NCBI RefSeq assembly: GCF_000026545.1
Contig: NC_011601.1
DNA: 64,000 nt
Source: Escherichia coli O127:H6 str. E2348/69
Lineage (GTDB): Bacteria > Pseudomonadota > Gammaproteobacteria > Enterobacterales > Enterobacteriaceae
Strand: one strand, 5' to 3'
A program made the position numbers. Positions 30,001-51,000 of the stretch are shown in pieces. The stretch's first letter is position 1, and every line of letters begins with the position of its first letter.

Positions 30001-33000
30001 CGTCGGTAATAATCAACAACGGCCACAAATACTGGTTCCAGCCGTAAATAAAGGTGATCACAAACAGCGCCGCCAGATTAGTTTTGGACAGCGGAAAAAC
30101 GATGTCGCAAAATAAACGCATTGGCGACGCGCCGTCGATCCGCGCGGCTTCCACCAGTTCATCCGGTAGGGTCATAAAGAACTGGCGAAACAGAAACGTG
30201 GCGGTCGCCGAGGCCATCAGCGGCAGCGTTAAACCTGCGTAGCTGTCGAGCATTTTCAGGTTGGCGATGACTTCCACCGTCGGGAAGATACGCACTTCAA
30301 CCGGCAGCATCAGGGTGATAAAAATCATCCAGAAGAAGAGGTTACGTAGCGGAAAACGAAACCAGACAATGGCAAATGCCGAGAGCATCGAGACGGTAAT
30401 TTTGCCGAGCGTAATGCTGAACGCCATCACAAAGCTGTTAAGCAACATCCGCCAGAACGGCGCGCTATTCGTGCCTACCCCGTTTACCCAGATGTTGTGG
30501 ATGTTTTCCCGCAGATGTGTGCCGGGGATTAGCGTCATCGGTGCGGCATAGACTTCTTGTTTATCCAGCGTCGCCGCGACAAACGCCACGTACAGCGGGA
30601 AAAGGATCACCGCGATCCCGAGGATCAGCATGGTATGGCTGAATATTGTCAGCCACGGACGGTTCTCAATCATTGGTAACGCACCTTGCTTTCAACATAG
30701 CGGAACTGCACCACCGTCAGCACGATGACGAGGAACATCAACACCACCGACTGCGCGGCAGACGAAGCCAAATCCAGTCCGGTAAAGCCTTCACGGTAGA
30801 TCTTATAAATCAGCGTCGTGGTGGCCTGTACTGGCCCGCCGGAGGTGGCGGCGTCGATCACCGGGAAGGTGTCGAAGAAGGCATACACCAGGTTCACCAC
30901 CAGCAGGAAGAAACTCACCGGAGCGATAAGCGGCAGCGCAATCTTAAAGAAGCGGCGAATCGGCCCTGCCCCATCAATGGCTGCGGCTTCGATCAACGAA
31001 CGGGGGATGGATTGCAGCGCGGCATAGAAGAACAGAAAGTTGTAGCTGATTTGCTTCCACACTGAGGCAAACACCACCAGGAACATCGCCTGACCGCTGT
31101 TTTGCGCGTGGTTCCAGTCGTAGCCGAACTCAGCGAGAAAATGGGTGATCAGCCCGCGACCGGGGTTAAACAGAAAGATCCACAATACGGCGGCAACGGC
31201 GGGAGCCACGGCATACGGCAGCAGCATCAAAGTTTGATAGAAACGACTGCCGCGCACGATGTACTCCACCAGCGCTGCGAAGAACAGCGATACCAGCAAA
31301 CCGCTGACGGTGACAAAGGTGCTGAATTTTATCGTCGTCCAGAAGGCGTCGAGATAGTAGCTGTCATGAAACAGCGTGACGAAATTATCCAGGCCGACAA
31401 ACTGGCTGGAGAAACCAAACGGATCGACGCTTTGTAGCGAGTACCACAACGCTTCGCCCGCAGGCCAGATAAAAAAGATAACGGTGATGATGAGCTGCGG
31501 CGCGACCAGCAAATAAGGCAGCCAGCGCGAGCGGAACACCGGACGGGATGATGACATTACAGTTAATTCCTGAACTGTGCCGGATGCGCTTCGCTTATCC
31601 GGCCTACACGCGATGCCAGGTCAGATAAGCGAAACGCATCCGACATTACACTGATTAAGACTTCGTCGATTTCTCAAAGCGGCGCAGTAACTGGTTCCCA
31701 CGCTCAACGGCAGTATCCAGCGCCTGCTGTGGTGTCTTCTTACCGGTCCACACGCTCTCCAGCTCTTCATCCACAATCACGCGGATCTGCGGCATGTTGC
31801 CCAGACGCAAACCTTTGGTGAACGGCAACGGTGGCTTGTTCAGCATCTGACGCGTGGCAATATCCGCTCCTGGGTTTTTCTCGTAAAAGCCCTGCTCACG
31901 GGTCAGGTCATACGCCGCTTTGGTGATTGGTAGATAACCGGTTTTCTGATGCCACTCGGCAGCGTTTTCTGGTTTTGCGAGGAAGTCGAGGAACTTCGCC
32001 ACGCCGGTGTAGGTTTCTTTATCTTTACCCTGCATTACCCATAGACTGGCTCCGCCGATAATGGCGTTTTGCGGCGCGTCTTTCGCATCGGCGTCGTAAG
32101 GCATCATGCCTACGCCATAGTTAAATTTGGCGTACTCGCGAATGTTGGCAAGAGAACCGGAAGAGGCGGTCGTCATCGCGCAATCACCGTTATAGAACTT
32201 CTCGGTGGATTCATCCTTACGCCCAACGTAGCTGAAATCGCCCTTCTTGTTCATCTCTTCGAGCATGGCGATGTGTTTCACCTGCTCCGGCTTGTTGAAC
32301 TCAAGCACCGCGTCTGTGCCGTCAAAACCGTTGTTTTTGCTGGCAAACGGCAGACCGTTCCAGGCGCTAAAGTTTTCCAGTTGGATCCAGCCCTGCCAGC
32401 CGCTGGCGTAGCCGCACTTCATGCCGGAGGCTTTTAGTTTTGCGGCATAGTCCGCCAGATCCTGCCAGGTTTTCGGCGGTTGTTCCGGGTCTAATCCTGC
32501 TTTCTTGAAGGCGTCTTTGTTGTAATAGAGAACGGGGGTCGAACTGTTGAACGGCTGGGAAAGTAAGTGCCCAGTTTTGCTGTCGGAGTAGTAACCGGAA
32601 ACCGTCGGCACAAACTGCGACTCATCGAATTGAATCCCTGCCTCTTTAAATACGTCATACACCGGTTTAATGGCTTTCGACGCCATCATGGTGGCGGTGC
32701 CAACTTCATAAACCTGCAAAATAGCCGGAGCGTTGCCGGTACGAAATGCGGCAATCCCCGCGCTTAAATTCTGTTCGTAGTTGCCTTTATAGGTCGGTAC
32801 AATTTTGTAATCCGGGTTTTCGGCGTTAAAACGTTGGGCCAGAGAATCCACCTCTTTACCCAGTTCCCCTTCCATAGAATGCCAGAACGGAATGGTCGTC
32901 ACTGCCTGCGCATTTGCCATTAAAGCCAGTCCGAGCGCCAGTGCTGAAGCTGTATAACGTAACGGTTTCATTGATTATCTCTCTTGTTGTACCGAATGCG

Positions 33001-48000: not shown

Positions 48001-51000
48001 GTTCCTGCAGGCGCCACCAGCGTAGACCGTCTGGTAACGCTGGAAGTGCTGTCAGAACCGGGTGCCAGCGCCATTGACCGGATTCTGAAACTGATTGAAG
48101 AAGCCGAAGAGCGCCGCGCACCTATTGAGCGGTTTATCGACCGTTTCAGCCGTATTTACACGCCAGCGATTATGGCCGTCGCCCTGCTGGTAACGCTGGT
48201 GCCGCCGCTGCTGTTTGCCGCCAGCTGGCAGGAGTGGATTTATAAAGGGCTGACGCTGCTGCTGATTGGTTGCCCGTGTGCTTTAGTTATCTCCACGCCC
48301 GCGGCGATTACCTCCGGGCTGGCGGCAGCAGCGCGTCGTGGGGCGTTGATTAAAGGCGGCGCGGCGCTGGAGCAGCTGGGTCGTGTTACCCAGGTGGCGT
48401 TTGATAAAACCGGTACGCTGACCGTCGGTAAACCGCGCGTTACCGCGATTCATCCGGCAACGGGTATTAGTGAATCTGAACTGCTGACACTGGCGGCGGC
48501 GGTCGAGCAAGGCGCGACGCATCCACTGGCACAGGCCATTGTGCGCGAAGCACAGGTTGCTGAACTCGCCATTCCCACCGCCCAATCACAGCGGGCGCTG
48601 GTCGGGGCTGGCATTGAAGCGCAGGTTAACGGTGAGCGCGTGTTGATATGCGCTGCCGGAAAACATCCTGCTGATGCATTTGCTGGTTTGATTAATGAAC
48701 TGGAAAGCGCCGGGCAAACGGTAGTGCTGGTAGTACGTAATGATGACGTGCTGGGTGTCATTGCGTTGCAGGATACCCTGCGCGCCGATGCTGCAACTGC
48801 TATCAGTGAACTGAACGCGCTGGGTGTCAAAGGGGTGATCCTCACCGGCGATAATCCACGCGCAGCAGCGGCAATCGCCGGGGAACTGGGGCTGGAATTT
48901 AAAGCGGGCCTCTTGCCGGAAGATAAAGTCAAAGCGGTGACCGAGCTGAATCAACATGCGCCGCTGGCGATGGTCGGTGATGGTATTAACGACGCGCCAG
49001 CGATGAAAGCTGCCGCCATCGGGATTGCAATGGGTAGCGGCACAGACGTGGCGCTGGAAACCGCCGATGCAGCATTAACCCATAACCACCTGCGCGGTCT
49101 GGTGCAAATGATTGAACTGGCACGCGCCACTCACGCCAATATCCGCCAGAACATCACTATTGCGCTGGGGCTGAAAGGCGTTTTCCTCGTCACGACGCTG
49201 TTAGGGATGACCGGACTGTGGCTGGCAGTGCTGGCAGATACCGGTGCGACGGTGCTGGTGACGGCGAATGCGTTACGGTTATTGCGCAGGAAATAAAGAG
49301 GCTATCAGTCTACGGTCCAACAATGCCGGATGCGGCGTGAACATCTTATCCGGCCTACACAGAGCATCGAACTCGTAGGCATGATAAGACGCGACAGCGT
49401 CGCATCAGGCATTGTGCACCGTATCGCCAGATGCAGCTTGAACGCCTTATCCGGCCTACAAACCGGTTTCAAGCAGCAACATTGAGCGCGATCGGTCCCC
49501 TCGCTCCTCTCTGTCTCTTATACACAAATCCCCACCCGGGGATTTGTGATGTCTGTCAGTCTGCTTTAGGGGGACTCTTTCCATCCGGTAGTTTCCTTCC
49601 TCCCCGGCAGCGATTTTTTGAACTTTTTCCTCACCCGTTGATCTTCTCTTATATTTCATTTTCTTCGGGTCTGTTATGGTACTTTCTGATTGTTATTCAT
49701 GGGCTAACGAGCAGTTTGGACATGCCCGTCTCGGTGATCCGCGTCGTACACGACGCCTTGTGTCACTGGCCTCTTCTCTCGCTCAGCATGCAGGTCTTTC
49801 TATTGTGAAATCATCCCAGTCCACTGCTCAGGTTGAAGGTGCGTACCGCCTGATACGTAACCCGTCTGTGTCCCCGCAAGCCATTGCCGAAGCCGGATTT
49901 ACCGCCACTGTAAGGGCATGTGAGGCTCATCCGCTGCTCCTCGCGCTGGAAGACACCACCACCATTAACTTCAGTCACAGTACGGCATCTGATGACCTGG
50001 GGAATACCACCACTAACCCGAAGACGCGCGGGCTGCTGGCTCACTCTGTCCTGATGTACGCCCCCGACAGCGCCCTGCCAGTCGGTCTTATCGAACAGCA
50101 GCGCTGGAGTCGTGCCACGGACACCTACGGTGTTAAGCACCAGCGAAAAGAACGTCCCTATGAAGAAAAAGAAAGTTACCGCTGGCAGCAGGCTTCGGAG
50201 CGCATGGCCGAACGGCTGGGGGAGATACAGAAACGGGTAATCACTGTCTGTGACCGGGAAGCGGATATCTGGCATTACCTGCATTATAAAGTCAGCCACG
50301 GGCAGCGCTTCGTGGTGCGTGCAGCACAGAATCGCCGGCTGGAAGAAGCACCCGGCAAGCTCTTCGAACTGCCGGAAGTCCTGGCAACCGCGGGAAGCCA
50401 CACGCTGAATGTGATGCAAAAAGGCGGGCGGGCAGCCCGCCAGGCCCGGATGTTCATCAGTTACAGCGAAGTCAGCATAAAAAATCCCGACAACAGCGGC
50501 CAGGCGCTCCCGCTCACGTATGTCTGTTGCCGGGAGCAGGCAGAGGACGGCGCCTGCTGGCATCTGCTGACGTCAGAAAAAGTGGCGAGTGCCGCCGATG
50601 CGCGACGTATCGTCAGCCATTACGAGCGACGCTGGCTGATAGAGGAATACCACAAGGCGTGGAAAAGTGGTGGTACATGTGTGGAATCGCTGCGAATGCA
50701 GACCCGGGATAACCTCGAGCGCATGGTGGTTATCAAGGCGTTTATCGCGGTGCGGGTGCTGGGCCTGCGGCAGGGCGGTATCAGTGAAGAAACACAAAAT
50801 GACAGCTGTGAGAAAATACTGACGCCGACAGAGTGGAAACTGCTGTGGGTTAAGCTGGAAGGAAAACCGCTTCCGTCACAGATGCCGACACTGAAATGGG
50901 CCTGTCTGAAACTGGCGAAACTGGGGCGATGGCATGACAGCAAACGCACCGGTCGCCCCGGTTGGGTAGTCATGTGGGATGGCTGGTTCAGACTTCAGGA

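Follow-up and report, generated by a model that had tools for sequence, protein, structure and literature searches.

REP clusters arranged as BIMEs in Escherichia coli E2348/69, and a neighbouring ISEc13 that occupies a symmetric C-run/G-run motif

When an insertion sequence (IS) lies beside a cluster of repetitive extragenic palindromic (REP) sequences, did the REPs bring it there? The question is raised by a 64,000-nucleotide stretch of the chromosome of Escherichia coli O127:H6 str. E2348/69 (NC_011601.1; this whole stretch is "the window", and positions count from its first letter), which holds four REP clusters, here called A to D, and a copy of ISEc13 that lies between zntA and tusA, close to cluster D. 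Our answer, which we hold with considerable assurance, is that the four clusters are ordinary, already known E. coli REP elements arranged as bacterial interspersed mosaic elements (BIMEs), and that the nearby ISEc13 is not explained by REPs and occupies a symmetric motif made of a C-run and a G-run.

Nine REP units in four clusters

A REP is an imperfect palindrome of 30–40 nt whose foot is the conserved tetranucleotide GTAG/CTAC and whose stem contains bases that do not pair (PMC3333891). Nine such units lie in the window, all of them between annotated coding sequences of E2348/69, and the rest of the 64 kb is free of REPs. They are 30–37 nt long, and eight keep the CTAC foot (the exception, unit A2, has CTGG). 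In the Y units, GCCGGAT-GC-GGCG stands opposite CGCC-TT-ATCCGGC, which leaves GC against TT as a 2-nt mismatch in the stem. Orientation alternates from unit to unit within each cluster, giving three pairs and one triplet. The initial annotation, made from the sequence alone, had described four clusters at these places with units in inverted pairs or triplets, and both descriptions are borne out.

A pattern search had been suggested as a check on these clusters, and two forms of it return far more matches than chance would. The tail motif CTTATCMGGCCTAC, with up to two mismatches allowed, occurs eight times in the window against 0.53 expected, a count reached by none of 100 shuffles, and a flexible head-plus-tail regular expression matches seven times, where Markov simulations give 0.1. 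All nine units are recovered by an nhmmer profile built from them, with E-values from 2e-10 to 1.7e-4 for the 64-kb window. Beyond these nine, the profile gives no match in the window below E=0.16; the best extra match (7852–7878, E=0.16) lies inside a 340-aa open reading frame (ORF) and was rejected as a chance resemblance. A fixed-spacer REP pattern has no matches in the window, because the centres of REP units vary in length. Nine units in 64 kb extrapolate to approximately 650 per genome, and approximately 600 REPs per genome have been reported (PMC3333891).

Clusters B and C share one architecture: a 35-nt Y unit (GCCGGATG, G-type) and a 30-nt Z unit (GCCTGATG, T-type) placed tail to tail with 36 bp of linker between them, with one copy per locus. 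Cluster B lies 60 nt past the stop codon of livF (33368–34081, minus strand) and upstream of ugpB, and consists of the long Y-type unit B1 (33207–33241, plus strand; nhmmer E=2e-10), 3' of livF, and the short Z-type unit B2 (33278–33307, minus strand, 30 nt). Cluster C consists of the short Z-type unit C1 (39040–39069, plus strand), 28 nt past the stop codon of panM (38628–39011, plus strand), and the long Y-type unit C2 (39106–39140, minus strand), 58 nt past the stop codon of livJ (39199–40302, minus strand). The linker of cluster C (39070–39105) contains an exact match to the integration host factor (IHF) consensus WATCARNNNNTTR, namely AATCAGTAAGTTG at 39081–39093 on the minus strand, and that of cluster B (33242–33277) contains ATTCAATATATTG, one mismatch from the consensus; because the window has 13 matches to this consensus against 3.8 expected, the two linker sites are at most supportive. 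By definition, a BIME-1 is a single copy per locus of a z1 and a y unit that point in opposite directions, with a long conserved linker between them in which an IHF site is often found (PMC3333891). Clusters B and C fit that architecture, from which their putative Z1 label is taken.

Cluster D lies between zntA (47098–49296, plus strand) and the convergent tusA (51124–51369, minus strand). It starts 27 nt past the zntA stop codon with the Y-type unit D1 (49324–49358, plus strand, 35 nt), followed after 16 bp by the long Z-type unit D2 (49375–49411, minus strand, 37 nt) and after a further 13 bp by D3 (49425–49459, plus strand, 35 nt; nhmmer E=2.4e-9), a Y-type unit with a degenerate head (CGCCAGATGCAG...) that we write as Y'. 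BIME-2 elements are tandem, strain-variable arrays in which z2 and y units alternate across short linkers (PMC3333891). Cluster D fits this class, with a Z2 label that we infer from unit length and from a match to naRNA4 described below.

Cluster A is atypical: both of its units are short, its linker is 8 bp, and the GTAG foot of one partner is lost. Unit A1 (31578–31607, plus strand, 30 nt, TGCCGGATGCGCTTCGCTTATCCGGCCTAC; nhmmer E=1.7e-7) and its degenerate inverted partner A2 (31616–31645, minus strand, 30 nt, TGTCGGATGCGTTTCGCTTATCTGACCTGG; nhmmer E=1.7e-4) occupy the intercistronic spacer of ugpB (31655–32971, minus strand) and ugpA (30670–31557, minus strand), which are adjacent and 97 bp apart. 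We take ugpBAECQ to be an operon here, as it is known to be in K-12, and because ugpB and ugpA are also neighbours on one strand, cluster A is intra-operonic. The initial annotation had placed all four clusters at operon boundaries; this fails for cluster A. Clusters C and D sit between the convergent pairs panM/livJ and zntA/tusA. Its gene names agree with the E2348/69 annotation.

The same annotation had called for the spacing and orientation of the units to be compared with K-12 BIMEs. REP and repeat features are absent from the K-12 RefSeq record for this region, so the comparison was made by direct alignment instead, and it succeeds for all but cluster D: A, B and C lie at orthologous K-12 positions (identities 97/98, 382/397 and 185/188, respectively). 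Cluster D, at zntA, is not a K-12 BIME, the zntA-tusA spacer of K-12 being 101 bp long and without REPs.

In a wider sample of 5,426 complete E. coli genomes, with presence defined as at least 80% query coverage, cluster A is present in 5,104 genomes, cluster B in 4,629 and cluster C in at least 3,747, and the BIME-1-bearing queries for B and C match a median of at least 29 and at least 40 places per genome, respectively, as a dispersed family does. A query spanning cluster D is covered in 796 genomes (approximately 15%), and most genomes (approximately 85%), ST131-like and O157 strains among them, carry the short K-12-type allele.

There are three alleles of this spacer in our comparison: the K-12 type (22651–22751 of locus L002; L numbers are our labels for compared loci), the E2348/69 type (window 49297–49510) and a third in strain CS5L (798–1352 of L003), in which the three REPs of the E2348/69 type are accompanied by a hydrophobic ORF of 102 aa (WP_000385055.1) for which Pfam gives no match. 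The E2348/69 allele looks like a deletion derivative, because it keeps half of the hairpin that follows zntA in CS5L.

The clusters therefore resemble known E. coli REP, BIME-1 (RIP/RIB) and BIME-2 elements in their imperfect palindromes of 30–37 nt, foot, 2-nt internal mismatch, alternation and extragenic position, in the 36-bp linkers with an IHF-like site (B and C) or the short linkers (D), and in the K-12 orthology of A to C. They differ from them in the irregular form of cluster A and in the presence/absence polymorphism of cluster D.

Could cluster D be something other than a generic BIME? The Rfam family naRNA4 (RF02564) matches units D2 and D3 at 49378–49456 on the minus strand with 65.2 bits, above its gathering score of 59.5, and naRNA4 itself derives from a REP cluster, REP325 (PMC4550694), so one might take the zntA cluster for a functional gene encoding a naRNA4-like nucleoid-associated RNA, a stable transcript that would bind HU and condense the nucleoid. 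We consider this quite unlikely. The RF02564 model is itself a REP pair, and any well-preserved pair of that kind can pass its threshold; the cluster D locus is missing from approximately 85% of E. coli genomes; and cluster D lies at a different locus from REP325 and has three units where REP325 has six repeats of two units. D2 and D3 probably score well because they fit a REP-pair model, not because the locus is a true naRNA4 gene.

ISEc13 beside cluster D

The element named ISEc13 by RefSeq occupies 49511–51060 (plus strand, 1,550 bp) and was rightly recognised as IS50-like at the outset; it belongs to the IS4 family. It starts with CTGTCTCTTATACACAA... and finishes with ...GATCAAGAGACAG, the right end being the complement of CTGTCTCTTGATCAGATCTC, and the two ends share CTGTCTCTT (9/9). 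The transposase, encoded by an ORF at 49676–51049 (plus strand), is homologous to Tn5 transposase over its full length (phmmer against PDB 1MUH/4DM0: E ~6e-84, residues 6–453). The Pfam domains Tnp_DNA_bind and DDE_Tnp_1 score above their cut-offs on this protein, and Dimer_Tnp_Tn5, at 24.1 bits, narrowly misses its cut-off of 26.7 bits. A perfect 9-bp target duplication, CGCTCCTCT, flanks the element at 49502–49510 and 51061–51069. Short terminal inverted repeats and a duplication of approximately one helical turn are traits of the IS50 subgroup of the IS4 family (PMC2266710).

What the element interrupted is a GC-rich palindrome. Its left part lies at 49484–49510 and ends in the left duplication copy, and the right copy is followed by its right part, GGGGAGAGGGTTAGGGTGAGGGG, which reaches 51092. 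When the IS and one duplication copy are removed, the result is GGTCCCCTCGCTCCTCTGGGGAGAGGGTTAGGGTGAGGGG, a sequence that is intact in K-12, ST131-like and O157 genomes. The zntA-tusA palindrome (GGTCCCCTCGCYCCTCTGGGGAGAGGGTTAGGGTGAGGGG; window 51070–51092, K-12 L002 22676–22750) is imperfect, approximately 45 bp long and located between genes, and it is dispersed: E. coli genomes have it at a median of 17 places, and at 31 at most. It is probably the E. coli repeat called Box C, likewise a dispersed, intergenic, GC-rich imperfect palindrome of approximately 45 bp, a name that we use provisionally.

The initial annotation had put the IS approximately 50 bp from the zntA cluster, and this is accurate: its left end, at 49511, is 51 bp past the last REP. 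It had gone further and suggested that the REPs were a target or habitual neighbour of the element. ISEc13 might indeed be attracted to REPs or BIMEs, either directly or by way of REP-bound proteins or REP-induced supercoiling, given that it shares an intergenic spacer with a BIME at so short a distance. Tn5, its relative, favours supercoiled targets. Gyrase cleavage is enriched in BIME-2 elements of K-12, which makes these elements gyrase sites (PMC6379681), and some ISs do target REPs, namely IS1397, IS621, ISKpn1 and ISRm22, the last of which shows that such specificity is possible in the IS4 family (PMC1525189).

These REP-targeting ISs, however, insert within REPs (PMC1525189), whereas the ISEc13 duplication (49502–49510) lies outside any REP, starting 43 bp past the last REP nucleotide (49459), and the element sits in a different repeat. 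Nor do REPs accompany its other copies: we found none in the flanks of 23 other ISEc13 loci, for which we had approximately 1.3–1.5 kb per side (L006–L015) or up to approximately 400 bp (L040–L052). The palindrome exists without a REP cluster in K-12-type genomes, so the motif is independent of REPs, and a motif that is not a REP is common to all the ISEc13 targets that could be reconstructed (14 of 14; see below). Finally, ISEc13 occupies the zntA-tusA site in only three genomes of the 5,426, each a member of the E2348/69 lineage, and cluster D is present in 796; the REP cluster therefore predates the IS, and we rejected a joint arrival of the two. On these grounds the suggested link is not supported, and attraction by REPs, already largely refuted, is extremely improbable.

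The adjacency is best accounted for by co-location. The 3' spacers between convergent genes gather REPs and GC-rich palindromes alike, which gives the IS a REP cluster for a neighbour here.

The element is abundant in its host. ISEc13 is found at 30 places in E2348/69 (NZ_CP059840.2), and the median is one in other E. coli genomes that carry any. The ISEc13-like copies in those other genomes are mostly frameshifted and 96% identical, and the expansion is a lineage-specific burst. At two loci of one genome (L012 and L013; CP148541.1, 2.30–2.37 Mb), the left flank of one ISEc13 matches the right-flank duplication of the other, and vice versa (CTCCCCAA and CGAACCAG), which indicates an inversion of approximately 60 kb by recombination between the two IS copies.

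A symmetric target motif

If REPs do not explain the position of ISEc13, what does? The element appears to select a symmetric motif of a C-run and a G-run. In the window, the target is a symmetric CCCCT[CGCTCCTCT]GGGG inside the GC-rich palindrome (49498–49514, 51061–51073). Complete targets could be assembled for 14 insertions, i.e. the one in the window, ten in an E2348/69-like genome (L006–L015) and three on prophage contigs (L042, L043 and L046), and all 14 have the form C-Y-C-N[8-9 bp duplication]N-G-R-G. C stands at positions -4 and -2 of every left flank (14/14), separated by C or T at -3, and G stands at +2 and +4 of every right flank (14/14), separated by G or A at +3. Every reconstructed duplication is 8 or 9 bp, and the commonest form of the target is CCCCT[N8]AGGGG. 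A strict version of the motif, CCCY-N8/9-RGGG, matches once in the 62.4 kb that remain of the window when the IS is removed, against 4.5 expected from a first-order Markov model, and that single match is the occupied site.

Repeated use of the same sites was also seen. At two sites (L045 vs L011/L040/L044, and L049 vs L006), different genomes carry ISEc13 in opposite orientations, and at the first of these, GCCCCT[GTTTATGC]AGGGGC, the identical 8-bp duplication was made in both orientations of the IS. This implies independent insertions at the same hot spot.

From these patterns we tentatively put forward a reading that falls only a little short of probable: ISEc13 would belong to the Tn5-type ISs but have a strict and symmetric target, undescribed in the literature that we could search, in which each transposase monomer reads a C-Y-C half-site located 2–4 bp outside the cut and the spacing of the half-sites sets a duplication of 8 or 9 bp. 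Sites of this kind are usually the apexes of GC-rich palindromes (intrinsic terminators or Box C-like repeats), hence the element would home to harmless 3' intergenic spacers.

The comparison with IS50/Tn5 shows what is shared and what is not. ISEc13 has a full-length homologous transposase, termini that begin with CTGTCTCTT, a 9-bp duplication at the site studied here and a symmetric target pattern, as expected of a dimeric transposase. The published Tn5 target consensus, reportedly given by Goryshin in 1998, is said to be weak and to lie within the 9 bp (A-GNTYWRANC-T). The conserved positions of ISEc13 (C-Y-C / G-R-G) instead lie outside the duplication, which in this element may be 8 as well as 9 bp.

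Sequence is not the only property that the targets have in common. Perfect inverted arms of 4–10 bp abut the duplication in eight of the first 11 sites, whereas only 0.45% of random window positions have arms of at least 4 bp. Several targets resemble intrinsic terminators, with A- or T-tracts outside the arms (e.g., L010 and L015), and one is a second copy of the GC-rich palindrome type found in the window. ISEc13 may thus recognise a DNA structure, such as the apex of an extruded hairpin or cruciform (an intrinsic terminator, for example), rather than the C-Y-C/G-R-G sequence. In favour of this, elements that share the left end of ISEc13 are flanked on the left, in Vibrio, Photobacterium and Aeromonas, mostly by A5-7GG plus 10–14 nt, terminator-stem-like and lacking a C-run. 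Only left flanks are available for these Vibrionaceae and Aeromonas copies (the contigs break at the IS, and longer loci have no right end), so the hairpins there are themselves conjectural. The first 24 nt of ISEc13 are unchanged in these contigs (L016–L035), in an element of approximately 1,503 bp.

Three E. coli sites, on the other hand, keep the C and G positions without perfect abutting arms, and at every E. coli site the left arm is C-rich and the right arm G-rich; no site has the opposite arrangement, even though stems that start with G are common in terminators. We therefore regard recognition of structure as rather doubtful. Reading of the sequence by a transposase dimer is favoured, because the C and G positions persist without perfect arms and because the same 8 bp are re-used in both orientations; it is nevertheless a predicted mode of recognition.

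Alternatively, the transposase might have no preference at all. Insertion would then be near-random, with copies surviving only in harmless 3' intergenic hairpins, such as terminators and Box C-like repeats, in spacers that also hold REPs. It is true that all observed ISEc13 copies are fixed survivors, and that most of the ten further sites lie just past the 3' ends of genes, several of them between convergent genes, or in prophage spacers. A loose form of the motif is also common (46 per 62 kb) and mostly unoccupied. Harmlessness, however, leaves the single-nucleotide register of the targets (C at -4/-2 and G at +2/+4, in 14/14) without an explanation, and this register extends to the sites with imperfect arms (the window, L007 and L042). 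Nor would it account for an identical 8-bp duplication being used in both orientations. Positions just as harmless number in the thousands in intergenic DNA. For these reasons we consider survivorship alone very unlikely.

Several points weigh against our own account and should be kept in mind when using it. For the target, only one of the 46 loose-motif matches in the window is occupied, so the motif as written looks necessary but is not sufficient. The 14 sites come mainly from one lineage (E2348/69-like) and are survivors of selection, which means that the bias towards intergenic hairpins may partly be survivorship, and this sample cannot fully separate sequence half-sites, hairpin structure and enrichment by survivorship. 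The 96% identical copies in other E. coli genomes do not extend it, since they have no target duplications and their sites cannot be scored. For the REPs, we assigned the labels Y, Z1 and Z2 from architecture, unit length and the G/T discriminator, and all REP functions discussed below are carried over to E2348/69 from the K-12 literature.

As to whether the target was already known, we did not find the ISEc13 motif in the searchable literature, though it may be recorded in ISfinder. The name ISEc13 turns up in eight open papers, a single time in each, and their titles suggest surveys of mobile elements. A review of the IS4 family does not mention ISEc13 (PMC2266710), and a literature search on IS targeting of terminators returned nothing relevant. 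The target motif is potentially the one new point of this analysis.

Possible functions and meaning

As RNA, every cluster has a stable predicted fold (z-scores of -2.1 to -7.9). By analogy with published REP biology, REPs that are transcribed would form stable hairpins which block 3'-to-5' decay, whereas at the level of DNA the linkers of the BIME-1 elements would bind IHF and the BIME-2 units would be gyrase sites.

Cluster A has the strongest fold. On the minus strand, which is the mRNA sense, A1 and A2 form one long hairpin (-49.0 kcal/mol, z=-7.9) with five G-U pairs, and the opposite strand folds less stably (-38.3 kcal/mol). This better fold in the mRNA sense suggests that the degenerate partner A2 is maintained by selection at the RNA level. 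The foot of A2 lies 9 nt past the ugpB stop codon (31655–31657), and ribosome stalling has been reported for REPs that lie up to 15 nt from a stop codon (PMC12306157). Judged by what is published on REPs, a hairpin just past the ugpB stop codon would probably set the ratio of UgpB to UgpA expression.

Elsewhere in the window, the gene for the small RNA RyhB lies at 24972–25036 on the minus strand (Rfam RF00057, 83.1 bits).

The REP/BIME clusters are in themselves nothing new, and their value here lies in correct annotation: cluster A as an intra-operon hairpin that likely tunes the UgpB:UgpA ratio, clusters B and C as two predicted IHF-type BIME-1 elements, and cluster D as a strain-variable BIME-2-like element. 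The negative outcome for the IS is useful too, as it cautions against reading REP targeting into the fact that an IS lies near REPs.

For ISEc13, the meaning depends on the proposed target. If it is true, homing to safe havens could explain how E2348/69 came to carry approximately 30 copies without gene loss. If confirmed, the element would be a natural example of a cut-and-paste DDE transposase that has gained site selectivity via a symmetric motif outside the duplication, and this would explain how an IS can multiply in the genome of a pathogen while sparing its genes.

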